Origin: Candidatus Danuiimicrobium aquiferis
GTDB taxonomy: Bacteria; Omnitrophota; Omnitrophia; Omnitrophales; Danuiimicrobiaceae
Direction: 5' to 3'
NCBI GenBank assembly: GCA_001804285.1
Contig: MHFR01000068.1
Coordinates: 103,230-167,229 of the forward strand
DNA length: 64,000 bases
Below, piece by piece: positions 4,224 to 63,400 of this stretch. Every line of letters starts with the position of its first letter. Positions within the stretch are counted from its first letter, which is position 1. The notes beneath the pieces were generated by a model. It did no database searches, was not told where the DNA came from, and was given only the letters and a program-made list of their open reading frames with translations. The position numbers and the translations under genes are program-made.

Positions 4224-4796
4224 ATGTCTGACGAAACGAATGAACTTAAAATAGAATCTTTAATCAAGGAAATGTTGGTTCAATTGGGAGAAAACCCGAA
4301 TCGTGAAGGATTGCTCAAAACGCCAAAGCGTGTTGCGGCCTCTTTCAAATATTTAACACGCGGGTATAGGCAAGATATTGATCAGGTGGTGAACGGCGCC
4401 ATTTTTCAGGAAAATTATGATGAAATGGTGCTCGTGAAAGAAATTGATCTTTTTAGTTTGTGTGAACATCATCTCCTTCCGTTTTATGGGAAAGTACATG
4501 TTGCGTATTTTCCGAATGGCAAAGTGATCGGACTGAGTAAAATCCCCCGGATTGTTGATGTTTTCGCCCAGAGGTTACAACTTCAAGAGCGGCTGACGAG
4601 TCAAATTGCAGACTGTCTGATGCATTATTTGAATCCCAAAGGGGTCGCAGTTGTGATTGAAGCTTACCATTTATGTATGGCCATGCGGGGGGTGGAGAAA
4701 AAGGATGCATTTTGTACGACGAGTGCCATGCTGGGTATGTTTCGCAAAGATCCGCGCTCGAGAGCGGAATTTTTGAATTTAATTGCGCGGAAATAA
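4224..4796 (+). CDS. folE: GTP cyclohydrolase I.
   Basis: It carries the FolE signatures [19 protein letters not shown] and [46 protein letters not shown]. Confidence 0.92.
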
Positions 4797-8345: not shown

Positions 8346-8497
8346 TTTGTTTAGCGCTTTGAAGTGATTATCTATAAAAGGTCGTCCGCTTTTTTGTCAT
8401 TCCCGCGAAAGCGGGAATCCAGCAACTATGGATGCCCGCTTAAAGCATGCGGGCATGACACGAACTGGCGTGTTCACCACTTCAAAACGCTAAATAG
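8346..8497. mobile_element. MITE-like element. Imperfect ~17-bp terminal inverted repeats (8350-8366 and 8478-8494) flank two internal hairpins.
   Basis: The terminal inverted repeats were read directly. The core contains the GTCATTCCCGC-GCGGGAATCC hairpin (8396-8420) and a second hairpin, ATGCCCGC/GCGGGCAT (8430-8459). The same core recurs at 37281 inside the giant ORF. Confidence 0.5.
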
Positions 8498-8543
8498 ACA
8501 CGATAAATAAGGATTGTGGGTTTAAATAAGGAAAGAAAGGAAA

Positions 8544-27510: not shown

Positions 27511-27555
27511 CCCCTCACCCCGCCCTCTCCCTGAGGGAGAGGGCGGGGTGAGGGG
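27511..27555. terminator. Perfect 21-bp-stem, GC-rich palindrome after the asmA-like gene. No U-tract follows, so it may be a REP-like or factor-dependent terminator.
   Basis: The sequence reads cccctcaccccgccctctccc-tga-gggagagggcggggtgagggg. Confidence 0.55.
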
Positions 27556-27611
27556 TGATAGGCAACTTCAGGACGCTAAATAGATGCGATTGATATTAAA
27601 ATAGAAATTTT

Positions 27612-28502: not shown

Positions 28503-28707
28503 CCCGGATTTCCCGTCGATTCACAAAATCGTTGAGAAAGTCGGGTTAAATGAAATCGTTGTGTTAATATAAAATATTTCTTTCGGTATAATGATATTTC
28601 CATTTTCTTATCGTTTACTGTAAGATAAAGCATAGAATTGATCAAACTTAAATCAAGGGGACGATTGATCAAAAATCATCTCCATTTATAATGACAGGGA
28701 AATAAAC

Positions 28708-30684: not shown

Positions 30685-30723
30685 AATGACAAATATCAAA
30701 ATTGTTCAAGTTGAGCGCTTTGG

Positions 30724-30832
30724 TGTCATTCCCGCAAGCCGTAGGCGGGAATCTCATGCCTTTGGATTCCCGACTACCCCGGAAAAGCTGGGGCCGGCCC
30801 TTTCTTTCCCAAGGGAAGCATTCGGGAATGAC
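30724..30832. repeat. Structured palindromic element of the GTCATTCCCGC family, in the orn-helicase intergenic region.
   Basis: It has a local hairpin (attcccgc-aagccgtag-gcgggaat). It also has a long-range inverted repeat (gtcattcccg at 30724, cgggaatgac at 30823). Confidence 0.5.
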
Positions 30833-36418: not shown

Positions 36419-39400
36419 ATGGCAGGTTCGACGAAACAGTTTATCTTAAGAATTATTGCGGGCGTTACATTATTGGCATTTTCAGTCAACCAAATTGGTT
36501 ATTCCAACCCAAGCCCGACTAATTTTTCAGCCCAACCGGTTACAGAGGTTCCGCTTCCGAATCCGGGATTCCAATTTTCGATTCCTCCAGAATTGGGGAC
36601 CGTTCAAAACCTGACATCCGGGTCGGGCGGCACGATCGTTCACATTCAAACCGCGCACGGAAATTACGAAGCCGAGAAACAAATTCAAGCGATTCTTCAG
36701 CATCTTCATGATCATTACGGATTTAATCTTTTACTTCTTGAAGGCGCCGGTGTCAAACTGAAACCGGAATTACTTCAATTTTTTCCTCAGAACAAAATCA
36801 AGACGTTTGAGCTTGCCGACAAGTTAACACACAAATCGCTCATGAAGGGTGCTGAACTATTTCTCATGCGGGCAAAGCGCGCGAAAGCATTCGGAATCGA
36901 AGACCTTAAAATATACCGGAGGAACCGGCGCGCCTTTTCGAGAGTCATGATGCGGAAAAAAGAAGCCGACGGGTTTTTGGAACAAATTGACCGGGGGATT
37001 AAACATTTTTCAGCTTTGTATTTGAATAAAGAACTGAGGACATTTTTAAATGAGTCGGAAGATTATGAAATGGGCAAGACGCCGCTTTTAGCATGGATCC
37101 GGTCGCTACAAAAAAATGCGGAGATTTTTTTAGATCTGGATTTATCCGATCCGAAAAATCAATTTCATTGGCCGATGACGCTTCGCCTGTTGAAATTGCA
37201 GGAGCTTGAGTCAAAGATTGATACGGAAAAGCTGGCGGAGGAGAAACGGAATTTTTTAAAGAAAATAAAACCTTTATTTGTGTCATTCCCGCAAAAGCGG
37301 GAATCCAGAATGATGGATCCCCACTTTCGTGGGGATGACAAGCAGTCTCGGATTGCATCGCCAATGTCCGGGACGACGGCTCGCAATGACGGCCGTCAGA
37401 ATAGGGGACAGGCAGTTCATCTGCCTGTCCCCTATTCTGGCCTGTACACCCAAATCGAATCCTTGCTCACGTCTCCCGCAAATATCCAGAATGAATTACC
37501 GGATCCCGAAACCGGACTTCTGTTCGAGAGGATGGCATCAAAACTTCCGAGGAATTTTAATTATCGCATGTACCCAAACCTGAATTATTTCATCGGCCGG
37601 TTAATTCTCCAAAGTGAAATTAAGGGGGAACTGTTACTTGCGGAAACCAATCATCTCGAAGAGTTGATTGTGAACCGCTTAGCGCAAAAAGAAGACGAAA
37701 AACAGCTTATGGAATTGCTCCGCGATTTTCATCTTTTAAAACGGTTATTCGCTTTAGCGCTTACGCCGGAAGATTACGAACAAATGACGAGCGATATCGT
37801 CCGTCATCCTGAGCCCCCAAAGGGCGAAGGATATGAGGAAAAGAGATTCTTCGCACTTCGCGCTCAAAATGACAGATTTCGTCCGAGAAACATGCTGCAA
37901 TCTTTTAACGCTTTAAACAAGGATAATCATGTTCAGAATTTACAAGTTGCTGGAATAAAAGATATCGATCTGCTCTATGAATCGGCTCTCGAATTTTATC
38001 GAATAGCGAAAAACCGTGATTGGGAAATGCTCGAAAATATTCAGAAGCGGATGAATCGGCTCGGTGAACGAAAAGCGATTGTCATTACTGGCGGTTTTCA
38101 TGCAACACCCTTCAAGAATTTCTTTTCTGAACACGGATATAGCTATGCGCAGGTTCGCCCCAAAATTTCCTCAACGGACGGATTCCAATCCTACATCGAC
38201 GCCATGCTTCAAAAATCCACGCTCGAGTCCCCGTATGTTTTCAGTATTCCGCCGGCAGAATGGATAAGGCACGGAATCAATCCAAGTTGGGTGAGACAAC
38301 AATTTTCTGCTGCGATGCGGGGGATGGCGGAGCGAAATCGGTCTGAAACGCGAAACAAAACAGGTTTACAAAAAGGGGACAGGCAATTGCTCAACAGGAG
38401 TCATATGCCTGTCCCCTTTTTGACTGACCAAAGCGCGCAAGAGTCCTCGATACGTTCCAAGGAGCATGTATCGAGGGCCGAAGCGCGCGGAAGAGAAGTC
38501 ACCAGTCGCCAGTCACTGGTCAATAGTGTTCCAGTGTCTAGTGATTTAGTATTTCAGGTAAGGGCTGAAGATTCCCGCCAGGGGCATGCGGGAATGACAG
38601 TAGAGCTCCATCGCAATGACGGTGCGTCAAGGGCCGAAGTCCGTCAGACGAAACAGGCGGAAATTGATACCCCGGCGTTTTATGCGGAATTGCCTAAAGC
38701 GCAATTAAGAAAAGTGGCATTTGCAATTCAGTTTTTGTTTGAAGATTCGTTTGCATGGCTTCCTCACGAAAAAACAGACATCAGCATCCCCAATATTGAG
38801 TCCGAACTGAAACGTTTACCGAATTACAAACTTAGGAACGAAGAAGAACTCGAGCGGATGCTTCCCAAACTGCGCCTCACAAACAGGGCAGCGCTTGTAC
38901 AATTTCTGGCGGTGTTAGTTGCATTGTTTGACAAAAAGGATGAAGAACGTGAGGCGGCGGAAAAGGCTGTGACGGAAACGGCTGAGGTGAAAAGCATAGA
39001 TGCTTCTACAGATGTTTCTCCTGAAGCGAAAAAATCGAAGTTATTCCATTTCGCTTTGCGTTTTATGGGGTTGGAAGAGCTTGTGCGATTTCGGACGATG
39101 AGGCGGACGAGCGGAGCGAGTAAGGAAGAGGAGAGGGCAGAAGATAAAAAAACGGATGCTTCGGTTGAAGCAGGTGAAGGAAAAGAACCGGATCAACCCG
39201 TTGACCGGCGGCCAACGAACGAAAAAGACGCTGCATTTTATACTCGAGATCTATATTTAACAGGCGGGCTGTCCCATCAAAACGCCTTGTCTAAAATTCT
39301 TGCATATCTTAAGGCCGGAATCGGTGATGTTGAAAGTGATTTGTTAAGGCAGCCGGTGTCGGATGTCCTTAAAACCTATGAGGATGATTTTCATCAGCGG

Positions 39401-42400
39401 GTTTTGAGCAGGGAGAAAATGCCATATTTTCAGGAAGTGGTTCCGGGTTTTGAGTGGCGCACTACCGTCCGGGATTTTCTTACATTGCATTGGAACCGGA
39501 TTCATTGGCCCGTTGTTTTATATCGTTTTATAGGATCGGATCCGGGCCGTTTTTTATTTTCAGCGCCTGTTTGGTTCATGATCGGTTCCTTTATCGGAGG
39601 GCTGACTGTCGCCGCTGCCTTTGCCGTCATTGTCAGGTATGTCTTGCGGCCGCTCTATGAAGGCGTGCTGTTTAACTTGGAAGCCAAAGCGATGAAACGC
39701 TATCGCGCAATGGCGTATGAGCCTTTTCCATACGGCCCGCATTTTATTTTTCAAGGAGATGATCTTTGGCGGAATGTCCGTCAAACCTATTTTCAAAGTG
39801 AATCGCTGATGCTTCCTAATGAGAAAAGTAATTCAGTCTTGAAGCTTTATGCGTTGGAACATGTATTGAAAAAATATCCTGGAACAAGGAAATATCGCTC
39901 CATTGTCCGTCGAGTGCGTGAGAGATTGTCATCCTCGTCTGAGTGGCCTGATATTCATGATGCGTGGACGATGGTTCATAATGCTGCAGTGCGCCAACGA
40001 ATTCAGATGAGTGATCCGGGCGTTAAGCTTATTCTTTATGTTCTTGAATTACCGGTAAGAGCGCCGCCGGCGACAGAAGCCCAAAGTCCACAAGGAAGGC
40101 GCAATTTTTATCAGCGATTGGTGCTGTTGATCCGCCGTTTGATTTTGATTGCTATTCAAAATGCAATTCTTCAACCCTTCCGGATATTGAGATCGTCTGT
40201 CTACTCTTTGAATTTGCGCGCAACTGCCCGGTTGATTGAGAAAATCGAAAATCGCATTAAAGCGTTTTTTAAATATCCTATCCGGGAATATTCAAGTGAA
40301 ATGTTCTCAAGCCGCAGCAATACGCAGGTTAAGAGTGTCATGGGCCTCCCTGATGAAGAGAAACGAAAACAAGAACTCATTCAATACTTAAAACAATTCA
40401 ACATTTCCGAGCTTGATCCTTTGATTGCGGAAATAGATCAAAGGCTCCATCTGAAATTCGACCGGTTTTTTGACAAGGAATGGTTCTCTCAAGCATTTTG
40501 GAATACGTTAACGGGGAACAGAGTTGTTTCCAATAAGAAAAGGAAAAATAAGAGCGAGGAAGCTATTGCTGAAAAACTTAGAGTTTTAAACGCACAATAT
40601 GAGTTTGATTTAGCCAATCACACGGTACTCCTCAATACCGAAATGCCGCTTTTTCTGAATGCGTTCATTTTGGTCAAGTTGGCCTCTCAACTTTATCAAC
40701 ACCATGTTGTGCGCGGAGAACGGGAAAATATCCATCTTCCTCCCGAAGAGTTGGAAAGCATTCCGAAGAAAATGTTGATGAAACTTTTCTGGGATGCGTT
40801 TAGAAACGGTAAGAAATATTTTAGTGACACGAAACAGCCGTATATGGGCAACTTGGCGATTTTTATCCTGATGATGGTGAAAGCGTGGGGTTGTAAAGTT
40901 TACTCATCGAATGACAAGCCGGGGATTCTTTACATTAAAACACATCGCATTACGATGCGTGCCATGATCAAGGCTAAAGAAGGGTTTGTTATCGGGAGCC
41001 ATTATCTTTTAGGAAAACGTTATCTTGGGATTACAAATCAAAAAAATTATCCTTTGGCAGAAAAAAAACACGGAGTTAGCAAGAAATTAAGTGCCGTATA
41101 TTCTATCCTTAAACCATTTTTTCCGATCCTCTCACAATTTGCCTGGATGCTGGGCTATTTGACTGCGGTGGTTGCGCTATTTAGCGGATTTTTTCTGCAC
41201 CTTGATTTAAGTTTCGTGATGCACTATTTGGATCAACTTATTCAGTGGCTGTCCACCATTGATTTTTTTGATATTGGGCCGATGATTGCGGCGATCTGGC
41301 ATTCAATTCAATCTGCGTACCATGATCTTGCGGCTGCGTTCAGCCAGATCCTTCATTATTTATTCGATATTGATCTGACATGGCTGAAACAGTTTTTCCA
41401 TGACCTGTGGCAAAGCCTTGAGCCTGTCCGTGCGTTTGTTGAAGATTATCTGGTGCCGTTTTTTTATCAATTTCTCGTACCCGCCCTGATTTTTGGATGG
41501 GGAATGATTTCCGGATTTCTTGCTTATAAAGTGCAATTAAGACAAAGGTTAATTCAAGTGGGAGATTACTTTATCTCTTTCGGAGCTCCAAAGTTGATTG
41601 CCTGGTTCATAACGGTTCCCGCTGTAATAGCTGCAACAACCCTGAATTTGAATACGGATAAAATTTTTGAATTTCGGGAACGGATTGAATCCGCACTTCA
41701 GACGAAATACATCGTTAAACCATTAAGTTTGATTTGGCATATGTTGGCCAATCTATTGTATGCAGGTTCTTTTCTCTTCGGCGTTGGTCTTTACTTTTTT
41801 ATGATGTGGCTGATTATTGATCCACAGCTTGGATTGTCGGGTTTAGCGGGCGGATTGCAGAGCTTAGGTTTGCCGGTACCGCCGATTGTGTTAATTGCCT
41901 ATGTGGCCGGCGTTGTTAGTCTTCCTTTTTCTTTTGTGTATGTTGTCTCGGATTTATTGATGAAAAAATTACCGGAACGCGGATTGTTTTCGGGCCGGCG
42001 AACTGTGTGGGGAATGATTGCGTTTTTGGGCGTGTTTGCCGTGATTACGCCGGTGGCTTTGAATTATACATTTCGTTCAAATTGGATGCGGTCAGATTAC
42101 GTTGCGAAAGAAAAGGCCAGGACGCTTTATGCAAAGCCGAGTATGGTTTATCACTATAGTTTGATGGGCAAAGAAGAGGCAAAGTTGAAAATTGAAGAAA
42201 TGAAAAAGGAACAAACTCAAAAAATTGAAGAAGTGAAAAAGGAACAAACTCAAAAAATCGAAGCGTTTAAAGCACAAATAGAACAAGCAGCGAGTCAACC
42301 GGCATATCCGTCAACGATAAGCCGGTTTAAGAAAAAAATAGAAGAGTTTTTTAAGCAGGACGACAAGAAAAAAAAGGTGAACGCGGTTGAAAGCAATAAA

Positions 42401-45400
42401 ACCGCAGAAGATATGCAAGCCTTCGTCCATTTCTTTTTCGAACGATTTTATCGATTTCAGAAGTATAAGGGTATGGAAAATATTGTTGATCCGGAAAACG
42501 GCATCCTGCTGGTCAAGACTATAGACGAGTTGAAATTGCATAAACAGGATATTTTGACAGCGATACAAAATAAGAATCGCGCAGTATATGGCAATATGCT
42601 TTTTTGGGAAGGACTATTCCGAACATTTGCTGTAAACGGTCCTGGTTTTTATGATGCGTTTACACCTGACGAATGGAAAACCGTTCTCAATCATGTTTTT
42701 GATGTGTTGGAGGGGAAAGTGCATTATCGGCATTTTCGCCAGCGTTATTTTGAAGAGAGGAAAGCACTCAATGTTATTGATTATTTTCTGTGGGGTAATT
42801 TATCGAGCTTGCACCGATTGCATCTTTATTTTGAGGGTGTTGGGACGGTGAAAGGCGATTTTCAGAAAGTATCCATTCTCTATCTAATGATGGCTGATAG
42901 TCCGTGGGGGTATGTTTTCCCAAGTGCGGATCATTTTACCGTATTAGATCCCGATCGTTCGGGTCTATATCTATCATTTTTTGAAGATCCGTCGATTGCG
43001 GTGGGGATTCCGGAAAATCCTTGGGCAAAATCCAATTCTAAGGGGGGGCTTCCTACTGCAAAAGCACCGCGTGTTGCCGTAAACGTTTCACCGGAAATTC
43101 GGAGTTTAATGGTTGAAACGATTGAGCGCCTTGTCAAAACAAAAACAGGGGATCAAGATGTTCAGTCTTTTATTTATTCCAGAAACCTTTGGTTTAATGG
43201 ACACAATACTGCCGATTTTTTGAAATCAGATCTGTTAAAGCAGGCTGCTCCGGTGAGGCCGAAACCGCTCAGCACAAAACCTTACACAACAACCAAGCCG
43301 GCAGAACGATCCGGAAACGTTCAGAGCCAGGGGCGGGCTGAAGTGCGCAATGTCACGCCAAAAACGGGGACAGGTTCTGTATCAGTGAAACCAGAACCTG
43401 TCCCCGTTCTGGCGAGGGCTGAAACTCGCGACGAAGCGTTGGGAGGGCGAGTGAGCGTGAAGGAAGAAGATGTCTTTAAAGGATCGAAACTTCTTAAATG
43501 GCTTGGTGCCGCGTTTTGGGGGTTGGGTTGTGCGGCGTTTCTTTATGGCGCATACGGCGTTATTTCGCTTTCGGATCTTTTTGTTTCCTACTTGCCGGTG
43601 CTTCTTGAGGGCTGGCTTATTATTGGAACTGCCGTGCTTGTCAGCCATTACAAAAATCAGTTGCAATATTGGACGCGGCTTTCATTGATGACCGGTGCAA
43701 CCGTGTCCGTTTTCTTGCTCTTTCACAAACTCGCCGCTTACTACTGGCCGGTGTTTGGTTTGAATCCCGACATAAAGCTGTCAACAAGCATGATCGTCCG
43801 CTTGCCATCTATCTTTTGCGGAGTTTTTATCAACGAGTTGATTCGGGTAAAAAGATTTTTTAATTTCGAATTCAAATTAGGCTGGGAAGAAGCGAAGCCC
43901 CATTTTATCAAGGCATTTAAATGGGCGATTTCTTACGGAGCGATTACGGGATATTATTTTTATGTTGTTTTGTACGGCTTTATCGGACCGTATATTCCAC
44001 AGGCGAATTATTTTCCGATGATGACACCTGATATGGGGACGGCGATGATGAAAATGTTTTTTGACCTCGCGGTGACGACGCCCCTTGTCAATATTTGGAC
44101 CGTAAGTGCGGTTAGTGTGGCCTTCGGAGAAGAGGTGGATGTTGCCCAAAATTGGAGAAACCAGCTGGAGGGTTTTCTGTTATTTTATCCTTTAACATCT
44201 CTTTATTGGATGGTCGCGCTTTCTATATCATGGTTTCTCTTCCCGGATGGCCTGGATGGTTTTCAGGCCTCTCATGCGCTTTTTTCCACTCTTTGGCAGA
44301 TAGCATTGCCGGTATTTATTGTTAAGTTTTATATCGGAAACGGAAAACGCGGCAAGTTGACCGGTCAAAAGCCTGCTCCGGTTCCTCATCTCATATGGGA
44401 AAACCAATCGGTTTCCGCAATATCCCGCAGAGTGGACGTGCGTCCCAAGAACGCAAACACAGGAATTACGGTAAACCGCAGCCATCTTCGTGCTTTGGCA
44501 ATCAATATGGTATTTGCCGGAGGAGCTGTGGCGGATAAAGCGGCTCAATGGGCGCTGAGTAAAACATTGCCTGTAGCGGCGAAATTGCTTTGGCCCGGAA
44601 AACCGCGGCGATCAAAGACGTCAGACCGTTCCGAAGTTCGCAACAATGAAAATAATGCCAAAACGATTGTTGATCGAGGCGAACAAGAGTCCTCGATACG
44701 TAGAGGGCTTGTATCGAGGGCCGAAGCGCGGCAGGAGGAATATGAAGTCGCGAGTCAACCGGCGGCTCCACATATCAGGAATTTGAAGCAAGTAGTCACT
44801 GATGTTCAAACAGCGGTTTCCGAACTCAATATTCGCGGCCTGGAGGTTTTTGTTTTCGGTTCGCGGGCAAATGGGAAACCAAGGGATGGTAGCGACTTGG
44901 ATTTGATCGTTTTAGTTTCCGAGACCATGGATCAGGCTGCTGCCATGGCGATTATTTGGCAAAATGATGAAATTGAAAAACGACTTTCAGAAAAGCTTAA
45001 AACAAAAAGAGATTACCGTGTGCAATTTCACGATATTAATCCGGCAACCCGGCGGCACTATTTTTATTTGTGGAAGACTCGACAGTTTTTTAAAAAAAAT
45101 ACCTATCTTTGGTTTGTTCAGGCAAATTCAATTCAAGGGTTTGAATTGCATGCAGATGGAGTTGTTCCGGTGGATCTTGATCGACTGGAAAGTTTAACGC
45201 CGCTGCCGATCAATCTTGCGAACGATATAGCAGGCTTATCTCCTGAACAATCTCGGAGTGAAACGCGGCAAATGGGATTCGCAGAAGAGGACGAGGAAGA
45301 CTCTGACGATGACTTCATGCTCGATGGTGAAGACCTGGATATAATGCCTGGCGAATTTTCAGTGAAGCCCCAACCGCCTTCCGGGGCTGCCAATCAATTG

Positions 45401-48400
45401 AGTGGCGGCAAAGAAGAAAAAAATAAGGGAAAAAGATTTCCAGCGGCGCGTCCTGATGATTATCCCTCTCCGGTTCGATCCATCATTTCCAGTGGACTTA
45501 AAATTGACGAGGACACCTCGCTTCCTTCTGCCCGACGGTCCGAAGTTCGCCTCAAAAAAGATAGTACAGAAGCGATGCTTCATCAAGGCGCACGAGTGTC
45601 CTCGATACATCCCAAGGGGCCTGTATCGAGATCCGAAGCGCGCAACATTTTACAAAAAGGGGACAGGCATATGACTCCTATTGAACAATTGCCTGTCCCC
45701 TTTTTGACTGACCAAAGCGAACGAGAGTCCTCGCAGTTGCGGCGAGGGCCAAAGGATGCCGCTGCGAGGGCCGAAGTTCGGTCGGATTTCAACAACGCGA
45801 CAGATGAACAAATCATGACTGCGCTAAAACAAATCGGGTTATCCGAGCGGCAAACCCGGAACCTTTCCACTTATCTTTCGAAAATCAAACGCGTTTTGGC
45901 ATCGGGCCGGCGGTTTCGATCGCATGAAGAACTCCGCGTATTCATGGCGGGTGTTTTGGGGGTGCCTGAATTGGCGGCGAAATTCGCAGATCATTTCTTT
46001 GAAAAGTCTGCTTCTCAGCCTGCGGCAAAGCCCAACAAAGCTCCTTCAAAATCATTTCAATTTAATAGAACAGTTGAACAGGTGATCGGCAAGATGCCTT
46101 TTAGCGTGAATGTTTTGTCAGGTCCGAACAGGAAAAAACTTTATGACGGAAAATACGTTCCCAATGTTGTTCAGGTTGCCAGCCTTGGCGTGAGAGAAAG
46201 AATAGCAGCAAGGCACATCGTCTATTCTAAATTTCTTGATGTGTTGGAAGAGTATACACACCTGACAGAAGCAGAATTGCTTCATATGGGTTTTGTCTAC
46301 AGGCAGGGACCTTCATCTTTATATCTTTCAGAAGTGGTTCGTCCTATTCTCCAATCAACCGGAGCAAGTCATGAAGCGCAATCGGCTTTGGCTCCGGCTA
46401 TTCTGGAAATTGCCAAAAGCATGCGCGAAGCCAAAGCGCTCAGCGGGGATGAAGTGCTTAAAGCCATTTTTTCTAATTTGGGTGGGATCGATGGACAATT
46501 CAGCCAGCTCATCGCCTATTTGAACCACATTCAATTTAACAAAGGGAAAAATCCGCGGCTGAAAGTGCCGGATGAGAAAGTACAAGAAATAAAATCCATT
46601 GGTGAAGTGGAAGAGATAACGATTTGGTTTGTTAAAGCCGGGTTCCTTACGAGTGTCGCAATGGCAGAAGTTAAATTCAAAAGTAGTACAAATCGAGCGC
46701 CCATTCGTTTTGCGATTAATGTCGCTAACGATAGAACGATTTCCGCGGAGAAAGTGAGGAATGCATATCGTCATATGCGAGCTGATTATGATTTAGATTC
46801 CCGGTTTGTTGCTGAACCGATTGGGTTGGGAACCGAGATTGCGCCGGTGATCATCAGTGAGTGGGTCGAACAGAGTGACGAACTTCATTTGTATGCGGAT
46901 ACCGGATTTCAGCAATTCCAGGTTTGGAGCGGCCAAAATATGCACAACAACCAAAAAGTTTCGCTTCAGGACTCCCGGAAAATTTGGCGACAAATTATTC
47001 AGATACAAACGATGTATTCCGGGGTGAGGCCTGACGGTGCCGGGATGTCACGGCCATGGATCAATCGCGGGGATTTTGTGCTGACGCGTGATTCGCAAGG
47101 GGAACCGCGTGTTGTATTAATTTGGGATGACAGAAGTAATCTTGTTACGGGACAGAAGATTCCGTGGGACGCTATTGATAGCGTTGTCAACAGTTTGATT
47201 TGGGGGGAAGTTGACCCGGACAGCGGAAAATATATTTGGGCAGATGATCCGGAATTAGCGATTCGAGCGATTGAAGACGGGTATTTAGAGCATAGGCAAG
47301 ATAAGATGGAGGCGAAAGCTGAACTGATCGAAATTCTTAAGATGGTCTATAGAAATAGACTTCCTGAAATTATTAGGCAGCCTTCTGTCATTTCGGCGGG
47401 TTTTGATGATTTTGATCCTGCTGAACTGGATCATTTTATTTCTGTCGCTAAGCATGCACACAAAGTGCTGGGCGAATTTTTGCAGCAACGTTCTGAAGTT
47501 CGGGAAGAATCTTTTGCGGTTGACGGTGAAAAAGACCTCACCATTGAAGAAATCGATGCGCAAATGAAGACGGACGGCTTTCCGGAAATGGAATGGTTAT
47601 GGAAGACATTCAAAGGGATGAAAATATGGAAGGGCGTAAAACTCCGGCGTATCAACTTAGCCGATATTGATCCCGGAAAAATTCAAGAGATGCGCACCAG
47701 GCATATGGGCGGTTTATTGGCGCGTCCTTTGGTCATGGCTTTGATGTCGGTTTCCATTATGTGTATTGCACTGTCCGTTTTTATGCTTTCCGTTTCTGCT
47801 CTGCAAGATGTCATGCTTTCGCTGCAGGGCTATCCTGTGGGTGATTGGCATAGTTTCTGGAAGAATAATGTCGAACCGATTTTTCGGATGTTTCGCAATC
47901 CGCTGATATGGATGGCGCTTTTATTTTCAACGCCGGTGGTTTTTTTGCCGGCAACGGCAATCAAGCGGGCGTTTCTGCTGTCCTGGAAGAAAATTTCCGC
48001 ATTGGACCTTGCGTTTATGTTAAGCAAACGGAATTACCGGGAATGGTTCGAGCAGACGCCGGGGGCGCAACAAACGGTCGCCAAACTTCGCGGCATGGGA
48101 ATCAATGAAAACTTTGATAATCCTGATTATGCTCGCCGCTATCGCGCCACGACCAAAGGTGTTGTGGAAGTGCCGATTCCTGCTGTCCCCAACGTTCATG
48201 CCGTTCTGAAGGAGGTACTCGGGGAAGTGCGTGATGGAAAATACGAGCGGGGCAACTACACGACCAGTCTAAAACACGGAAGGAAATCCGTGACGGCTTT
48301 TGTCGCGCAGAATAAAAGGGAGGTTGAGCTCAGCAAGCCGCCGAGGCCCAGGTATGCGTGGCCTATCCCTACGTTCATCGGCTTGCTCATGGGTTTTTAT

Positions 48401-51400: not shown

Positions 51401-54400
51401 TCTGAAGCGCGGCAGGACCATGTTGCAGATGAAATAAGGGCTGAGTTCCAAACTATCGTAGCTGTCGCGAAAGGGAAACCGAAAAGAATCAAAGGATTGA
51501 GTTCTATTGTTGATTTTGAAAGCGGACGGCTCAGGGCCAATTTCCCGAGGCCAATCGGTGATACCGTTGGAAAGACGAAAACGATCGGCCCCGTCAAAAA
51601 CCTTGCTGATTTGGAACTTGAAATTTTCAACCTTGCGACCGGCGAATTCCGGATGGATTTCTATTATAAGAAAACCGGTGAGAAGAAATTTGAGAAGGAT
51701 CCTTTGAGGATGTATTGGGTTCCTGAAAAGAAAGCGTTTCTTGTTGAGCGTGAATATCAGCTGGAAAGAGTCAACGCGGCTTTCCGCCGGCTGCGCGAAA
51801 CGAAACAAAAGGGTACTGAAGAAATCAGAGAAACAATAGGTGACATTAGCGCGTTTATGAATTTACAGGTTGGTGGCACTCCGGAAGCATTTCAGACGCC
51901 GGATGGCGAGTCCGTGGAAAAACCATTTTTTACCGGTGCGGGTGTCGATCTCGACAGGATGTCGCTTGTGATTGTCAAGGAATCGCAGGACCGCTATCGG
52001 TTGGAATTTGGTTATGTGTATACGGTTGAGGATGAAGAAAGCCATGAAAAAATAAAAAAAGAGGGTATTGCGGTTGTCTTATGGGAACGAAACAAGAAAG
52101 CAGATGATTATAAAGGCTACATCCGCCGAAAAGATAAACAAATTGAAGAACTTCGGAATGCGTTCAAAGAATTATTAAATCCCGCATTGCCGGTTGGTTC
52201 TGCCCGCGATATAGAGGATGTGCGGGAGCTTTTTCACTTGCCGACGGGCCTCATGCAGATCGCTTTCCCGACACCCGACGGAGGAAATATTGGTGGCGGA
52301 AAATCTGAAGAGGAAGGCAGGAGAGGCATCGGGGCGTCTGCGGACCTGGAATTTATTTCGGCGCGTGTTGTTAAAACGGCCGATGAACAGCTGCGGGTTG
52401 ATTTTTATTATAAGACTCGGAAAGACAAAATTATCCGCGAGGAACCGGCAAGCATTGCTTGGGACGGACTCAGTTACATATTCCCATCGGATGACATGGG
52501 GTTGACGGACAAGGAATTTCGCATGCGTGTTCTCAAAGGGCGTATTCTCGAAGAACTTTTATATCGATTTTTTGCGAAAAAGCAGAGCGACACAATGTCA
52601 TCCTCCGGCTTGACCGGAGGATCCATGGATTCCCGCTTGCGCGGGAATGACAGAGGATCGCGGATAGAATTCGAAAGAGAGTTTCTTGTAGATGAGTTTA
52701 CGAAAGAGTACCGTTACCCGACTTTTTTTGTGGAAGGTGAGTTTGTCGGCGCCTGCAAATGGGGTCGCAGCGCACATAGCATTGTTGAGACGGTCCTGAA
52801 ATTATCCCGGCTCCAGAAGTTGAGCGGGCGCACGGAGCCCATTCGGTTGATTGTGTTTGATGCCGCGAAAGTGGACGAAGCCATGGAGGCGCTCAGAGCT
52901 ACGCAAATCAACGGAATTCCGTACGAAATTATTCCTGCCAGTGAGTTGCTGAAACGGACCGGCCCGCCGAATGGCGATGCTGTTTCGATGCTCGAGACAT
53001 TAAAGGATGTCCGTCAGAAAGAGCTTGCAGGCGATGAAACAGGTCTTGAGAAAATGTATGCGTCGTTACGTGAAGAAAGTGGTGCTCCGGTCCGCCGTTA
53101 CAAAAAAGGGCTTCAACTTCAGCATGAGGCCGACTGGCAAAGTCATTTGATCAATCATTATATCGAGGAAGGGCCGGAGAAAATTCTTTCTGTGCTTGAT
53201 TCCATTCAAGAACATCAGTCCCCATACTGGGAATGGGCCTACCATTTGCGCTTAATTGCGTTTCTTTCTTATTTGTATCAAAAAGTTGAAGACGGCCGCG
53301 TGAGAAAGCGGATTCTGGAAATTTATCCTGATATTGAAAAAGATCCCGGCGCATGGCAGAAGATCGTTCAATATTACAAACTGCGGGAATATGGCCCCGA
53401 CGCCGAGGCGCGGATTCATGCGCTTATTCGGACGCAAGAACTCGATGAGAGTGAAGACATAGAAGAGGCTGAAGAAGTTCCGGCGCCCGCGGCCGAAAGA
53501 AAATCGCGGATGACTCATGCGGCTGCGTTTGATTTTGGAAGGTTTGAAGTGACCGTTGATCGAACGATCAGCCGGCAGATGAAGCGGCACCACATCACTG
53601 ATTTAGATAAGGCCGTTCCGGCGGTCGATATGGCAGTCACGCCGGATGTCAAGGCTGCCACACTTTTGGAGACCATTGCCGAATTCCGGAAGTTATTTGC
53701 AAGAGTGACCGACCCTTACGACCCCTTCCAGCGGATGAGCCTCTTTTTGTCGCAAAAGAAGGAAGACCTCAAAGATATTCCGGCGGCCGAGAGGCATGCT
53801 TTGTTACGGCAAGTTGTGCAGGCGTTTGTCATGTATTTTATCGATGTGAAGCGGTTTAATGACAGCCGGTATAAATTTTTTACGGGATATAAAGGCGGTT
53901 TGGGGAATGTCGGATTCGGGGACTTCTTACGGTCTCTTGATGCCACCGGCAATCTTATTTTGGTCGAAGATGATTTTGGGCCCGGCGTGAGCGGCTCTCG
54001 TTTGTTAAACGAATTCGAAACCTTTGCCAAAACGCTTGGTATCCCAGTCCCTCGTCTAAGTTTCGATCCGCATGCAGCTGCAGCTTCGGGAAATGTTCCG
54101 ATTCCGGCAGCTGTTTTCTTTGCTGATGAAATTATCCGGAGAGCCGATCGCGGCAAACTTGTAAGAACACCGGAGGATCGAAGGGTGATCCTCGATTTTA
54201 TCGGGGCGATTAAAAGCGATCAACAGCGAGTGGTTAAACTTGCGGCGGCGGCAAAAGGCGGAGTCAATACGAATCAAGTCGGTTTTAATGAAGCGGTGGT
54301 CAAAGATCTCCACGATCAAGTAAAACGGACAGGACCTCAAAGTTTTCCCGAGAAGTTGGAAGAGAGAATCGTAAAGTTTGCTCAAGGGATTATTCAAATA

Positions 54401-57400: not shown

Positions 57401-60400
57401 AATAAACCGCCTAAAGTAACCCAAGATCACAAGGGCTCTGTTTTGCAGGAAGTAAGCGATATCCTTTTGCCGAAACCCGCGGGCAGAACACAAACGACAT
57501 TGATCTATTCGCCTCCGGGGGGTGTTGATCGCAGCAGTGATCCCGCTTGGCAGAGTCTTAAGAAGAAAGCTGATTTGTATATTCATCTTTGGGACGAGCC
57601 GCTGGTCAAGAAATTTCAGCGTTTGAAACCGGAGCGTCTTGCGCCGACGGGCCGGAATTATTCTCATCATGACTATTCGCCCAATGTTTTTGGGGCGGAA
57701 GAAGAGAGAATCCATAAAGAGGCCATCCGGTATACGGAGAAAGGCGTGACTTTTTCAGAGGATTTTCAAGGCTCGGCCTTTGTTCTCATGGAACCGGGCG
57801 AAAATGATGTGATAGCGACGGCCATTGAACAGCCCGGTTTTGATGATCCTGAGATTGCTTTTATCGGAGAGAAAAACGGAAAATTAGTTGTCGGCGGAAC
57901 GCAATATTTTAATCCATTGTACTACCGGTACGATGACTTTCTGAAATTTCTATTAACAATGATTCAGGATCAGGGGATCCAATTGAAAGGACTCATGATC
58001 GGACATGAGGATTCGCCGAAACAGGATAACGCTGCCCGGCATTTTGTTGAAGAAGTGACTCGAATGGGAATTCCAACTGTCAGTTTTCCGCCCAGAAAAG
58101 AACCCGGTACGATTTTAGTGACGAAAGAGGGGATTGCGCGGCTTCACTTCAAAAAACGGGAGCATGCCCAGACTGTGCGAGGACCGAAAGCGGATCAAAG
58201 CGATGCTCGTTTGGAATTAGAGGTGGATCGATCGGCTACGGATCTCCGTTTGTGGAAAGATTTATTTCCTGAAGAGAAGACTTCTGACACACAACCGGTG
58301 AAACGTGACGTCTCGGGCGATGATTTGGTCAGAAAACGTTATTTGGAACTTCTCGATGACATGGAAAAAAGATTAGCTGAGCCGGTTGAATCTGAGAAGA
58401 CGTTACAGGCGCGGCTGGTCCGGGATGAAAATGAATTATCGCTTCGCGTGACCTATCAAAGAGAAGATCGCGTGTCTCATGTCGTTGTACGGTTTGATCG
58501 GCAGAAAGAGAAGGCGGAGGTGCGCGGATTTGCGGAATTGGTCGGTGAAGAGGACGTGACAGCCGCCGGAGTTAGAGGACGCATTGGCGTTCCGCTCGGT
58601 GAAGTGGATATTTTAGCGGCACGATACCGATTTGAGGGGGAAGTATCCCTGAGTGAAAGTGAAAGCAATTTTCGTAAGGGTTTAATGGACATCCTTCGGG
58701 CTGCAAGAGTAAAGGTGCTGGCGCATCTCTATCCGGAATTATCCCGCCCGCAGGATCGAACGGTAAAAGACAGTTCAGAACAGCCGAGATATCCTGTGCC
58801 TGGGAAAGAAGAAATCATCGAATTTTATGAAAAGCATGGCGATGATGGTTTTATCTATTTACCAAACGGTGCAAAGGTTCCGGTCGGAATTTATCAGCTG
58901 GATGACAAGACGCTGACGTGGTACCGGGGTTTGATTAATGAGTTCGGAAGGAATCTTAAAATTCTTTCCTTGGGTTCCGGCCGCGGAAAATTGGAATCAT
59001 TGCTCAAAGAAGACGGTCATCAAGTGACGGCCGTCGATTTAAGTCCTAAGAATGCGAGATACGCCGAAAAAGTGGGAGTTGAAACCGTCCTTGCCGATGC
59101 ACATCACCTGTCGCTTCCCGAAAAGGATTATGATTTGGTGATCGTTGTGGATTCTCTTGGTCAAATGGATCCGCCCGTCATTTTCCAACGGGCCAAAGAG
59201 CATCTCAAGGCCGGCGGATGGCTCTTTGTGACGATGGTGAGAACGGAAGCGAAACAGACACGGGAGGGATACGAAGTGACCAAATATATTCTCTACCCCC
59301 GGGGGTATCTCAATCATGAACTCACGAAAGCCGGTTTTGCCCCGACGTCAGAAGGGATGCTTCCGACGTTTGGTGATCCGCGCGGAATTACGTTTGAGTA
59401 TCACAATGCCGTGTATCAGCCTGCCCGTTCCGAAGCGCGGGCGCTTAAGCCGTTTTCCAACCTTTTTTGGTGGAGGAGTGAAAGCAATAAAAGGTTGAGA
59501 GAAGTGAAACATCAATGGAGTCGCCTTGAGCGGTTACTTATCAAGAAAGGAGCTAAACTTCAGGTTCAATTGGCGAGTTTTTGGCATGAAGAAGGCGAGC
59601 ATACGGATTTGCCGGATATGGATGTTTTGGCAGTGAAAAGTCTTTACAGCGGAACTGCTTTTGCGAGCTTTGAACTGCCGCAAGGCGCAATTACACATTT
59701 TTTGAAGGACGAAGAAACCTCGCTTGTCGCGAGGGGAAATCCGTTTTGGGCAAAATTTATGAGAGTCGCGAATGAAACTGTTTCTGAAAAAATGTTTGGG
59801 GTTGACGATTTTCGGGAAGCGTGGCGGACATTGAGAAGGTTGCGGCTCGAATATCGAAGGAAGGAAAAAAAGGAGCCGGTGCCTTTTAAAGTCAATCTTG
59901 CCGATCCGGTCATTTCCTACCGGAGTCTTGGTGTCGAATCAGATGGTTCAATTCGTCGCGATGATTTATTTGATTACTTAAAGCTCTCCGATAAACAAAG
60001 AGAGGAATTGGCCAGATATAAGATCGTCGAGATTTCTTCCGAGCAAAATCCGTCGGGCCGGGGAAAACTGATTTTATATTATCCCGTTAGCGCGGAAACG
60101 AAGAAATTAATCGAGAGGATCAAATCGCGATATAAAGAAGATTTGCGACAGCTTGGTTTTGCGGGCGGAGAAGCGGCGGATGAATTTATTCTTGAGCAAT
60201 TTCTTACGCCGGTGTTGATTGCTTTACGGGATGTGGTTCAAGTCCGCAAGCTTGCGGATGTGATTGCGCGGTATTTAAATGAACAAGGCAGTTCGAAAAT
60301 GCCGAAGGAGATGAAGGTCGTTCATGTCGGCGGGCTTTATCATTATCGAAGCTTGCAGAAAATTCTGGAGGCAACGGGGCTTTTCGAAGACGGATTGGTT

Positions 60401-63400
60401 TTTGAATTACTTGATCCTATTTTTGAATCGCGCGAACATATTCCGGATTCTGAAAAAGGAGTGCAGTTTTTTGCGGATCGAATTCCGGACTTAATTGATC
60501 ATACGTCATCAAATGGCAGTGAAATCCTTTTTGGCGATGCGTATTTTCTCAAGTTGTTCGGCGACTTCCTTAGAGAAACGGATTTTTGGTATTATCTGGG
60601 CGTTCTCAATCTGAAAGATAAACAATACGCGGCCTCCGTGAAAGCATTTGAAAAAGCGTTAGAACTTCACCCCGACGATCCGAGGATCCGGCAAGTGACG
60701 AAGACCTTCAAAAGGGCTGCTCCTGCATTCCACAACCTCGCGTTTATCGAACAAAGCCGGAAAGATTTCATCTTAGCGGCCGGTCATTATCGAACAGCCG
60801 TGGCTTTAGATCCTTCTTTGTTTCACGCATGGTTTAATCTGGGCAGAAGTTTGGGAAAATTAGAAAGGTTTCTCGATGCTGCGGAAGCGTTTCAGAATGG
60901 GTTGCGAGCTCTCAATGATCGCGAAAAAGAAGATCAAAAATTAGCAAGAGACTTTTGGGAACATCTTGCGGATGCCTATTCCCGGGCCGGAAAAGTGAAA
61001 GCAAAGGATTACATTTTAAATGAAGTACTCCGAAAGAGAACGCAACTTCCCACTAAACAAGAGTTGTCAGTCTTGTTTGAGAAATTAAATACTGTCGGCG
61101 AAAAACGTGCCGAAGTGCGTCACAATGAAAATAATGCCGAAGGGATCATTGACCAAAACGCACGAGTGTCCTCGATACGCTCCAAAGGGCCTGTATCGAG
61201 GGCCGAAGTGCGTTCGCACGCTCCTTATATTCCTATTTTTTCTACACGAACTGAAATTGCCCGTGCTCATGCTGTGATTAAACGGAGTACGGCCCGGAAT
61301 AAAAAAGTAAAAGAATCGAAAGCGATGATGGTATTGCTGCCGACAAAAGACGGGGGTGATAAGCTTCCTCTTTGGTTTGAAAGAACGATGGCGGATTTGA
61401 ATAAATTAAAAGGCTACCATATTGAATTGATGATTGCGTCGAACGGGTCCAGTCCCACGGATAACGCTCATGAAGTGATTAAAAATATAGCAGCGCAATA
61501 TATTCCCGAAGGAATTCCTGTTACATATATCCATATCGAACCGGACGTTGGCAAAAACGCCACTATTAATGTTCTGTATGAAGAAGCGTTAAAACGTTAT
61601 CAGGAAATTAAAGCGGAAAAACAAGCAGCAAAAAGTAAAAAGGGAACTTCTGATTTCAAAATGTTTCTTCATTTCCTTGATGACGATGTTTATTTTGGTC
61701 AAGACACCGAGTCGCAAATCGGAAAGAATATCAAACTTTTGGAGGATCCTGAATTCGCGCAGAAACGTACTGGTGTTGTTCCGAAGATTGTTAGTACAAC
61801 GCCTGTTTCACCGGTTATTCGCGGTGGGTGGAGTTTGTTGGACACTTGGAAATATTATTTTCAGCGCATGACGAATATCCGGAAGCAAGCTTTGGGCATT
61901 CCGCTTGTGCAAATTTACGGGCAATCATACACTATTGATATCGAAGATTTTCCCAAGAGCGGTATTCCTGACGTGCTGAGTTATGAAGACGCTTATTTAT
62001 CGGCGTTCTTTTATCCACATATGGTGACCAATCCTGATGCTACTCATGAACACGCTGAGCCTGCGACATGGGGCGTTTTTATGTCCCGTTATTTGAGGGA
62101 CGTCCGTCATCGTGCCGAATTAGGAAAGTTTTTTAGTTATGATCCGGCATTGAAAGAAAATTTTGACCGGTTTATCGAAGAGAGAAGAAAAAGCCATCGT
62201 GTACTGACCGAGGCATTAAAGCAGAAATTTCAGTTTTCTCCGATTGATCGAATGTTACTCAAGCTGAATTTGGGGTTGAAACATAGGCTTGACAAAATTT
62301 ATGCACAAGGGAAGGCGGAAAAATATTTGGAGCAAGAAGGGCCAATGATCAGAGGGACGAATGTGGGCAATGTGGACTTGATTAGCGTGAATCCAAAAAC
62401 CTATGGAATTGCCACGAAAGAAGGTGTGATTTATACGGAGCCCGAGCAGTTATGGAATACGGTTGTCGCGATGGGGCTTGATACGGATTTGAACAGACGT
62501 CTAAACATGGGCGAAGTTTTGAAAACGATTGCCGACAACCGAAATTTAAGCGAGGAAGATAAAGTTCATTTGAAGCAAACATTGGAAGAAATTTGGCAAA
62601 GCTTTGGAAGAACACCCGCGGAGGAATTGACAATTGAGGAATTTGCCGTATTTCTTAATGATCAGCGAAACCTTGGTCCGGGAGCACGGTTTCTTACCGA
62701 ATATTTAATTAATCAAAAATTATTTTTGCTTTATCATGCCAGCCATCAACGTGATGATTGGTTGCTTGCCTATTCTGCCATGATTAAATTGATCGGTTTT
62801 ATCCGTGAAGAGGCAACGATTGAAGATTTGCGTGAATTGCTTCGGATTGCAAGAAAATCAAATATTCCGATCGCATATAGATTATTGGCAGAAGTGATGG
62901 ATCGGGTCATGCAATTGGAGGAACCTATCGAAATAGCGGGACAATCTTATCGAGTCATGGAAAAAATAGAAGGCGGATTTGTGCTGGCCGATGGTGATCC
63001 TCAAAAGTTTGAGCCGACTAGGTATTATGTGGCGAGTCATATTGTTCCTGCTGAACATGCCCGGTTACAGCGGATGAGCGAATTGGAGCCCGTTCATTTT
63101 GTAAAACCCATTGTTTATGATGAAGTACTCCGAATTCAGGTGGCAGACAGAGTGAACGGTCAGGGGTTTAATGATTATGTGAATCGCTGGCACCGCGTAT
63201 GCAGCTGGCTGGAAATTGCTATTCAGATCACCAAATCGGCAATCGCTATGCATCAGCAAGGATATGTTCATGGTGATCTCGCGCGGCCGTATGGTGTTGT
63301 TACTTTGGATCCGGAGCAATCGGATCAAGTGGTGTTGACAAATACCGGTCTGGCCGAATGGGCCGGGCATTTATCCGAGCGGGCGGATGTTTATGGAATT

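Follow-up and report, generated by a model that had tools for sequence, protein, structure and literature searches.

A recurrent pentapeptide and in-frame structured repeats between the enzyme domains of a giant gene of Candidatus Danuiimicrobium aquiferis (Omnitrophota)

Introduction

Bacterial genes that exceed 10,000 codons have come to light only recently, which raises the question of how they are built and tolerated and how their products may be processed. Here we describe a giant open reading frame (ORF) in a 64,000-nucleotide stretch of Candidatus Danuiimicrobium aquiferis (Omnitrophota; assembly GCA_001804285.1, contig MHFR01000068.1, positions 103,230 to 167,229 of the forward strand), which we call the window. 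The ORF encodes a multi-enzyme protein in which the pentapeptide R[AS]E[VAT]R recurs, and several neighbouring copies of this pentapeptide enclose related modules of 36-38 residues. A first-pass annotation of this DNA had offered three explanations for the modules and the peptide, namely a protease processing site in a polyprotein, a flexible linker cassette, or the translation of a spreading DNA element. Our analysis suggests that two layers are probably superimposed at these places: a native, protein-level junction motif, and structured repeats inserted in frame at the DNA of that motif.

Giant proteins called 'Archaeovorins', also of more than 10,000 amino acids (aa), have been described from the same phylum (West-Roberts et al. 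2023, bioRxiv 10.1101/2023.11.21.568195). Like the present ORF, they mix TPR, HAD, methyltransferase and other enzyme domains, and their post-translational cleavage is suspected; that preprint gives the cleavage points as unknown. In a term search, two papers on Omnitrophota giant proteins showed no mention of linkers, hairpins or palindromes, and no mention of the motif strings was found in the literature searched.

Results

A pentapeptide recurs in a single frame of a giant ORF

The window contains 9,194 codons of the giant ORF, representing the first part of the gene. For the same ORF, a gene call of 15,706 aa is available on contig MHFE01000007.1 (GCA_001805325.1, 220 kb). Our analysis of the gene covers these first 9,194 codons, ahead of a further ~6,500 aa (~19.5 kb). 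Pfam recognises only scattered enzyme domains in it: a nucleotidyltransferase (NTP_transf_2), HAD, HD, two methyltransferase domains, TPR and a weak GT2 match.

The strict pentapeptide R[AS]E[VA]R occurs 16 times in this ORF, always in one frame on the + strand (nucleotides 38474, 38630, 43334, 44627, 44717, 45536, 45629, 45767, 47489, 49364, 50264, 51251, 51398, 59426, 61106 and 61199), and three further sites carry Thr at position 4 (RSETR at 38339 and 45254, RAETR at 43415). Only 0.06 strict matches are expected from the amino-acid composition, and 500 shuffles yielded a mean of 0.058 and a maximum of 1. Moreover, the ORF has 20 R.E.R pentamers, and 19 of them conform to R[AS]E[VAT]R. The recurrence reported by the first-pass annotation is thus confirmed, and its coordinates agree with ours to within ~7 nt; the copy that it placed at 43412 is the RAETR at 43415 and falls outside the strict set. 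Elsewhere in the window the peptide is nearly absent: the other five reading frames hold a single match, at 24469 and out of frame with the gene there, and none of the other 26 listed ORFs contains the motif in frame. Across six such ORFs, five of them relatives described below, we counted 64 perfect sites in 20,979 aa against 0.23 expected. Fourteen of the sites in the window fall into six clusters, within which neighbours are 81-156 nt apart, always by a multiple of 3, and the other five stand alone.

At the DNA level the motif has the consensus CGK KCC GAA GYN CGG, with a shared core, KCCGAAGYGCG, that is not a palindrome. When up to one mismatch was allowed, the core was found 45 times in frame on the coding strand, against 4 times in other frames and 3 times on the other strand, and it was absent from the 36 kb upstream of the giant ORF. 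None of the alternative frames of the core contains a stop codon. One relative locus (L123) repeats the frame and strand pattern, with 0 matches in its other 8.7 kb. The idea of a near-palindrome in GCCGAAGTTCGG, raised by the first-pass annotation, is not borne out: the sequence occurs only once, at 45770, and, as described below, the motif codons pair with a distant hexamer and not with themselves.

The variation among the sites is of the kind found in proteins. The wobble positions of the motif are its least conserved (0.75-0.78, versus 0.87-0.98 elsewhere), and both codon families are used for Ser (TCN and AGY) and for Arg (CGN and AGR). One-mismatch variants of the pentapeptide number 18 against 10.9 expected, beside the 64 perfect sites; since they barely exceed chance, the motif shows no tail of decay. 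Codon choice at the motif is also strongly skewed, with GCC for 22 of 28 Ala (background 24%), TCC for 16 of 27 Ser (background 19%), GAA for 52 of 55 Glu codons (background 73%) and CGN for 53 of 55 last Arg codons (background 72%), so that a nucleotide-level influence or recent shared ancestry must be present as well. Judged from these sequence patterns, the pentapeptide is most simply understood as a selected protein motif that would be native to the junctions of giant or large multi-enzyme proteins of Omnitrophota, where it may serve as a cleavage or recognition site.

A second short motif, DTP[AG][FY], lies 5-8 residues after a RAEVR site in four places (aa 599, 1523 and 1711 of L118, and aa 753 of the giant ORF in the window). 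It may mark the start of a repeated domain.

Motif sites lie outside every recognised domain

All motif sites map 8-65 aa outside the nucleotidyltransferase, HD, methyltransferase, TPR and GT2 matches, and hence outside every recognised domain. Some lie 8 aa before the nucleotidyltransferase, 14 aa after the HD domain and 26 aa after a methyltransferase, and others follow the TPR block and precede the weak GT2 match. The stretch from aa 2775 to aa 2948, bounded by motif sites, is essentially one small nucleotidyltransferase domain. AlphaFold, run with a 13-sequence alignment, gave a predicted local distance difference test score (pLDDT) of 80-95 for the N-terminal domain and below 50 for aa 292-338 (an insert encoded by hairpins), for another variable loop and for the whole modelled stretch that starts at the first motif site. 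A prediction of one module together with the nucleotidyltransferase region, made without an alignment, was uninformative (mean pLDDT 46.9). Taken with the domain map, the first of these models places the motif in disordered joints between enzyme domains, a position typical of polyprotein processing sites, which are short conserved motifs in inter-domain joints. This map agrees with the first-pass annotation, which had placed the long modules at domain boundaries and had named those just ahead of the nucleotidyltransferase and of a GT-A module.

A HAD-like domain at 49560-50263 (aa ~4385-4618) is apparently circularly permuted: the motifs of its C-terminal half (MMTGT, GNK, SIGDGEAE) precede the segment with motif I (FDWDGT), and the permuted unit is flanked by two sites of the RAEVR motif. 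We rejected the possibility that the HD segment is an insertion splitting the HAD domain, since both HAD halves lie upstream of it in permuted order.

The N-terminal domain is a candidate protease or esterase

The giant protein begins with a transmembrane or signal helix, followed by a ~550-aa domain with the characteristic alpha/beta fold of the TIKI/TraB/erythromycin esterase (Ere)/ChaN proteins. The domain is common to 12 Omnitrophica proteins, including a complete relative of 1,055 aa (P0003). Its invariant residues are H75, H80, E84, E108, E161 and H561, some of which may correspond to the conserved 2His/2Glu catalytic set of the superfamily. The Pfam matches are weak, DUF5694 with E = 0.026 and the ChaN family (Tiki superfamily) with E = 0.12. 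In the TIKI superfamily, site-specific endopeptidases (Tiki, and the MARTX toxin effector RRSP) stand alongside esterases and a haem-binding protein (PMC6254334); because of this mixture, the N-terminal domain can be called only a candidate protease, or esterase. No Pfam peptidase domain was detected in the ~21,000 aa of such ORFs. A dedicated protease, suggested earlier as something to look for nearby or within the gene, is therefore missing among Pfam peptidases, and the TIKI-fold domain stands as the candidate.

The linker modules are translated copies of a structured repeat

The three long modules that the first-pass annotation had singled out in the window are indeed one repeat family, 74-86% identical in DNA. 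We collected 11 complete units from six ORFs, each of 105-108 nt including both flanking copies of the motif. These 36-38-residue modules are the in-frame translation of a structured nucleic-acid repeat of 90-93 nt, the B unit, which has two helices. In the first helix (P1), the last six bases of the left motif copy, that is, the Val/Ala and Arg codons, pair with a hexamer 38 nt downstream, the guide.

Although the covariation test covers 11 units only, the pattern is consistent, with P1 paired in 98.5% of cells and the second helix (P2) in 92.9%. Double compensatory changes occur at three of the six P1 pairs (UA:6/CG:5; GC:7/UA:2/CG:1; CG:9/UA:2), giving helices such as GTTCGC/GCGAAC, GTGCGT/ACGCAC, GCCCGC/GCGGGC and GCGCGC/GCGCGC. 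Accordingly, a switch between Val and Ala at position 4 of the motif is matched by a compensating base elsewhere. None of 500 shuffles reached the P1 covariation score, and shifting the partner columns destroyed the pairing. The covariation links the 6-nt guide to the left flank but not to the right one: when the guide was paired with the right-hand motif copy, 3 of 11 cells paired at columns 57/107 and helix pairing dropped to 77.3%. Within the arms of P2, CCTCGATAC and GTATCGAGG, conservation is highest at the wobble bases (0.97), and no codon periodicity is seen in the conservation of the unit's spacer, which together are the signature of selection on pairing and not on peptide. A third small helix in the spacer is poorly supported, being paired in 63.6% of cells.

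The inserts between clustered sites are 81-156 nt long, all multiples of 3 and without stop codons, and they are therefore read through as disordered peptide. Folding z-scores of these stretches and of the other inserts range from -1.9 to -9.5, versus -1.4 to +0.8 after lone sites; five of the 11 native junctions (first or lone sites) are without structure. The ends of the B unit (GCCGAAG... and ...CGAGG) are not inverted repeats, and the two 15-nt direct repeats that flank it are consistently different at their first and last codons. Within the window, each of the 8 later sites of a cluster begins with AGR, the end of the P2 stem, and each of the 11 first or lone sites begins with CGK; across all loci the corresponding counts are 20/8 versus 8/30 (Fisher p = 5.5e-5). 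A CGG end is found at 7 of the 11 lone and cluster-terminal sites versus 0 of the 8 sites that precede an inserted unit. Translational bypass or frameshifting at the hairpins was considered and rejected, as the inserts are in-frame multiples of 3 without stops and no conserved slippery site is present.

Two generic palindromic families accompany the B unit

Two further hairpin families, A and C, turn up inside B units, next to motif sites or at other places in the ORF; some composite B units carry an A hairpin within the P1 loop. Family A (GGGGACAGG...CCTGTCCCC, with perfect 17-19-bp arms) has five copies in the ORF, among which each of the three reading frames is represented. The 54-nt copies at 38369 and 51323 are exact reverse complements of each other (100% identity), so the element is read both ways, with different loop peptides. 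In one cluster (43334-43429) the A arms, 43363-43379 and 43392-43408, lie in a frame that differs from that of the other A copies. Family C (ATTCCCGC...GCGGGAAT) is found in three frames and both orientations in giant ORFs, and twice in intergenic DNA of the window; given the intergenic copy at 8395-8421, it is not coding-specific. Six of the eight hairpin clusters of the ORF are at motif sites. The insert in the N-terminal domain (37277-37440), with perfect 19-bp arms and z-scores of -6.2 and -9.5, has no flanking RAEVR.

Rfam returned no family at the gathering threshold and chance hairpin matches only at a relaxed threshold, and there were 0 matches to the A and B repeats in viral contigs.

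Relatives show filled and empty sites

A DNA pattern scan of metagenome contigs yielded four real loci (L116, L118, L119 and L122), each of them fully open, holding 1,367-3,039 codons of another giant ORF, with the module on the same strand and in the same frame. Scanned with HMMER against 1.84 billion representative proteins, a 92-aa module segment had one true match, P0001, which forms the C-terminal part (2,618 aa) of a further giant ORF, on L123, and one false match, P0002, a repetitive protein without the RAEVR motif. Each relative locus carries 8-12 motif sites and has almost no sequence in common with the window protein outside the modules. A looser pattern, TCCTCGATACN{8,16}GTATCGAG, was discarded: its 114 matches in the contigs came from unrelated taxa in about the number expected by chance, and none had the extended motif.

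Searches with the N-terminal domain recovered 12 homologues of 35-44% identity, which carry the NCBI name Candidatus Omnitrophica. In 10 of the 12, the insert at 37277-37440 has no comparable counterpart, and in other homologues different loops hold palindrome-derived peptides of their own. At the junction that follows the N-terminal domain, RSETR of the window (CGG TCT GAA ACG CGA) aligns with RSEMR (AGA TCA GAA ATG CGT) of P0014, a protein 36% identical. The site is thus kept with 6 of 15 bases changed; in P0014 it is bare, with no hairpin unit after it, while in the window it is followed by A and B units. In the complete 1,055-aa relative, three sites are bare and share the form CGN...CGG; among more distant homologues the motif is either looser, R[SG]E[LM]R, or missing.

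Some features of the relative loci lie outside this comparison. On L123, a scaffold gap (N run ~760-830, within 1-840) parts P0001 from an upstream open frame with two tandem B units, and the giant gene ends just before rplM-rpsI. On L124 (1194-3544), P0003 sits ~1-3 kb downstream of a pair of peptidase genes, from the M48 and MA_2 families, and a BatD gene comes after it; the peptidase genes may or may not be relevant to processing.

Features of the window and gene neighbourhood

The positions of the features are collected in Table 1.

Table 1 Giant ORF, motif sites and repeats in the 64,000-nucleotide window
Feature	Position	Strand	Description
Giant ORF	36419-64000	+	Frame open from 36410 to the window end; first ATG at 36419; multi-enzyme protein
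N-terminal conserved domain	36569-38212	+	aa ~51-598; TIKI/TraB/erythromycin-esterase/ChaN fold
In-frame insert in N-terminal domain	37277-37440	+	C-type double hairpin (ATTCCCGC...GCGGGAAT) and A hairpin 37397-37439
Cluster 1	38339-38644	+	RSETR 38339; inverted A hairpin 38369-38422; guide with P2 hairpin 38433-38488, closed by RAEAR (38474); partial RAE(D) site; C hairpin inside 38560-38606; RAEVR 38630; z = -9.2; pLDDT <50 from aa 645
Cluster 2	43334-43429	+	RAEVR, A-type hairpin, RAETR; z = -6.0
B module	44627-44731	+	105 nt; RSEVR...RAEAR; 8 aa upstream of nucleotidyltransferase; P1 GTTCGC 44636-44641 / GCGAAC 44679-44684 (in minimum-energy fold); P2 TCCTCGATAC 44690-44699 / GTATCGAGG 44711-44719
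Lone RSETR	45254-45268	+	CGG AGT GAA ACG CGG; AGY serine codon; no structure after (z = -0.09)
Cluster 3, B module	45536-45643	+	RSEVR...RSEAR; whole cluster 45536-45781, folding z = -6.8
Cluster 3, second unit	45629-45781	+	A hairpin 45653-45706 in P1 loop; variant P2, 45718-45736 with 45762-45780; ends in RAEVR
Lone RSEVR	47489-47503	+	CGT TCT GAA GTT CGG; no structure after (z = -1.06)
Lone RSEVR	49364-49378	+	CGT TCT GAA GTG AGA; N-terminal edge of permuted HAD; z = -1.38
Lone RAEVR	50264-50278	+	CGT GCC GAG GTT CGG; between HAD and acidic linker before HD; z = +0.83
Cluster 4	51251-51412	+	Starts 14 aa after HD domain; RAEVR, half A repeat, A hairpin 51323-51376, degenerate P2 3' arm, RSEAR; z = -5.7
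C-type double hairpin, opposite orientation	52596-52652	+	In frame, without flanking RAEVR; z = -4.0
Lone RSEAR	59426-59440	+	CGT TCC GAA GCG CGG; 26 aa after methyltransferase; z = -0.48
B module	61106-61213	+	108 nt; RAEVR, P1 GTGCGT/ACGCAC, P2, RAEVR; between TPR repeats and weak GT2 match; z = -3.5
C-type hairpin (TGTCATTCCCGCGAAAGCGGGAATCCA)	8395-8421		Intergenic copy
C-type hairpin	30717-30763		Second intergenic copy

Upstream of the giant ORF, the region 50-22639 holds a cluster of polysaccharide or O-antigen type (Wzy_C ligase, several GT1/GT2/GT4 glycosyltransferases, a carbamoyltransferase and an ABC exporter), and other upstream genes encode GTP cyclohydrolase I, an LpxD-like acyltransferase, an amidase_2-LysM protein and FeoB. 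None of these ordinary upstream genes encodes a transposase, recombinase or peptidase. The giant ORF itself contains a 33-nt tandem duplication at 42188-42253, whose two copies are 97% identical and encode KIEE[M/V]KKEQTQ twice.

Further repeats lie between the upstream genes. A perfect palindrome with 22-bp arms (CCCCTCACCCCGCCCTCTCCCT / AGGGAGAGGGCGGGGTGAGGGG) occupies 27511-27555, and the peptide HPNPLPEGEGS, in frame in the giant ORF of L118, looks by eye like the same type of repeat. A 31-nt direct repeat (ACTTCA..ACGCTAAATAGA..CGAT.ATA) at 8479-8509 and 27565-27595 sits 17-35 nt upstream of two ORF starts (8544 and 27612) and may be a promoter or a motif of the 5' untranslated region. 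We could not establish that the intergenic 'GCGCTTTG/ACTTCA..ACGC' sequences are related to the motif core. Several intergenic hairpins lie in 1008-1163 and 28509-28551; the 43-nt element at 1008-1050 is an inverted copy (91%) of that at 28509-28551, both follow ORF ends, and they may be terminators or another repeat family.

Discussion

A probable native motif with in-frame repeats at its DNA

Our proposal builds on what was observed directly, namely structure, covariation, frame behaviour, presence or absence in relatives, and the positions of domains. The pentapeptide would be the native, protein-level layer at the joints, and the repeats probably came to lie at its DNA. The B unit, in this reconstruction, starts at GCCGAAG of a motif copy, continues with P1 and then P2, and ends ...TCG AGG, so that a second motif copy is regenerated after it. 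Units may have entered or multiplied at the GCCGAAG core of existing sites, either by site-specific insertion or by recombination between copies. Each would have entered after codon 1, leaving the original CGK on the left and producing AGG as the first codon of right-hand copies, as the codon rule suggests. The inserts would then be selfish or neutral in-frame repeats resembling Rickettsia palindromic elements (RPEs), and we propose that they persist because the joints tolerate them. For the modules, the earlier idea of a spreading DNA element holds, given their compensatory changes, wobble positions as conserved as the others and the unrelated hairpin repeats, found in all three frames, that sit inside or beside them.

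Several points count against this proposal. The codon rule and the CGG tail were noticed post hoc, and the codon rule has exceptions in the other loci. The guide of two composite units in the window (38339-38488 and 45629-45781) has the right-hand motif copy as its partner in place of the left one. All B units found lie in giant ORFs, in the same frame and on the same strand, and their copies are only 74-86% identical, a picture that slow duplication within the gene or gene conversion would explain as readily as transposition. Genes for a transposase, a recombinase or an HUH enzyme of IS200/IS605 type are absent from the window and the fetched neighbourhoods, for which reason no mobilising enzyme could be identified. 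A homologue search with aa 2500-3700 of the giant ORF found nothing, the query itself being missing, and a search with the module alignment also found nothing; since the protein databases thus appear to lack giant proteins, these negatives do not support rarity of the motif or module outside the family. Finally, a peptide-level role for the modules is still compatible with the data.

Alternative explanations

The alternative that survives best is polyprotein processing, in which a protease, possibly the protein's own N-terminal TIKI-fold domain, would cut the giant protein at R-x-E-x-R into separate enzymes. We regard it as a real but tentative possibility. It concerns the pentapeptide, and it is compatible with our explanation of the modules. 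MARTX toxins and viral polyproteins, too, are large multi-enzyme chains in whose disordered joints a short motif recurs, and MARTX toxins also carry the TIKI-fold endopeptidase effector RRSP (PMC6254334). MARTX toxins differ in that a cysteine protease domain cuts after Leu, whereas no such domain was found in the giant ORF, and the TIKI-fold domain here may be an esterase.

An improbable alternative treats everything as selfish DNA, with the 15-nt site as terminal repeat or target and the lone sites as footprints of deleted units, in the manner of solo long terminal repeats. Codon usage at the motif is indeed far from the gene background, most hairpin clusters are at motif sites, and recombination between repeats would restore the CGK...CGG form of lone sites. 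Neutral footprints, however, should decay, yet one-residue variants are hardly more frequent than chance; most of the variation is at wobble positions and includes TCN/AGY and CGN/AGR switches; the site after the N-terminal domain is kept between proteins only 36% identical despite the changed bases; and the site does not appear in the other frames, although these are free of stops.

Still less probable is a function in the mRNA, in which the hairpins would act as ribosome pause sites, RNase processing sites or stabilisers of a ~47-kb transcript. Compensatory changes do reveal selection on pairing, the structures lie at domain ends, and the B unit is always on the coding strand. The same covariation, however, fits single-stranded DNA structure during propagation equally well; nearly half of the native junctions are unstructured, A and C hairpins occur in both orientations and in intergenic DNA, the inserts are missing at the same positions in relatives, and no Rfam family matches.

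We give very little credence to a functional linker cassette, a module selected as a protein spacer and spread by duplication. Its constant length and its location between domains would suit such a role, and the inserts do lie in predicted disordered inter-domain segments, so that part of the 'flexible linker cassette' suggested at first stands; nothing indicates selection on them as peptides. Conservation has no codon periodicity, the stem wobble bases are the most conserved, variable residues change in step with their pairing partners, and the loop of the A repeat is read either way into different peptides in a region predicted to be disordered.

It is just as hard to credit that KCCGAAGYGCG and its hairpin are cassette recombination sites like integron attC, through which in-frame shuffling would assemble giant genes: single domains are bounded by the motif, giant ORFs share the motif and almost nothing else, the motif-bounded HAD is permuted as if from a circular or tandem intermediate, and the succession of outer stem, internal loop and inner stem resembles attC in outline, but the GTTRRRY core, the placement between ORFs as promoterless cassettes and an adjacent intI are lacking, the core lies within one continuous ORF, no integrase or recombinase was seen, no cassette was found in two contexts, and the protein-type conservation of the motif would be left unexplained.

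Relation to known repeat elements

Among known elements, the RPEs come closest to the B unit in behaviour. They too are short hairpin repeats, in frame and free of stops, that are translated where the host fold permits (PMC10969869). RPEs are ~150 bp long and occur over many unrelated genes, whereas the B unit has 90-93 nt and is confined to one family of giant ORFs, where it always keeps one frame and one strand and is tied to a 15-nt site that looks selected at the protein level. As in intragenic transposable elements of the miniature inverted-repeat type (MITEs), a stable hairpin repeat is inserted in frame, without stops, at positions where orthologues lack it. The B unit is without the terminal inverted repeats and short target-site duplication of MITEs, and dispersal over unrelated genes or intergenic DNA is seen for the C family alone.

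A different resemblance is to REP/REPIN and IS200/IS605-type elements, which likewise have an imperfect hairpin, a short 5' sequence that pairs with the flank, and a strong strand bias. In IS608, the guide pairs with the cleavage site. Those elements are extragenic with a 4-5-nt guide, while B units all lie in ORFs, in frame, and form a 6-7-nt Watson-Crick helix; no Y1 HUH transposase (RAYT/TnpA) was found in the 64-kb window or the fetched flanks. The C family, by its ATTCCCGC-loop-GCGGGAAT core and its intergenic copies, presumably resembles the dRS3/Correia-type ATTCCC...GGGAAT repeats of Neisseria; it differs from these in coming from an unrelated organism and in being also read through in frame within the giant ORF.

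Implications

A more speculative combination, which we consider rather unlikely, joins the two layers: R-[AS]-E-[VA]-R would be a cleavage site, perhaps of the protein's own TIKI-fold hydrolase, and the B hairpin a parasite specialised on that site, whose peptide is excised after translation. If this were true, the B unit would insert at the DNA of the site, regenerate the site and be harmless at the protein level, comparable to an intein or intron.

For genome analysis, the repeats matter because they inflate ORF length, mimic linkers or domains and could cause assembly errors. The coupling of a protein motif to a nucleic-acid helix found here has no precedent that we could find in the RPE and MITE literature consulted. 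For the giant proteins themselves, R[AS]E[VAT]R with the core KCCGAAGYGCG provides a searchable junction signature that splits them into domain-sized segments, and the joints of these giant genes collect in-frame hairpin repeats, one family of which is structurally coupled to the codons of the motif.

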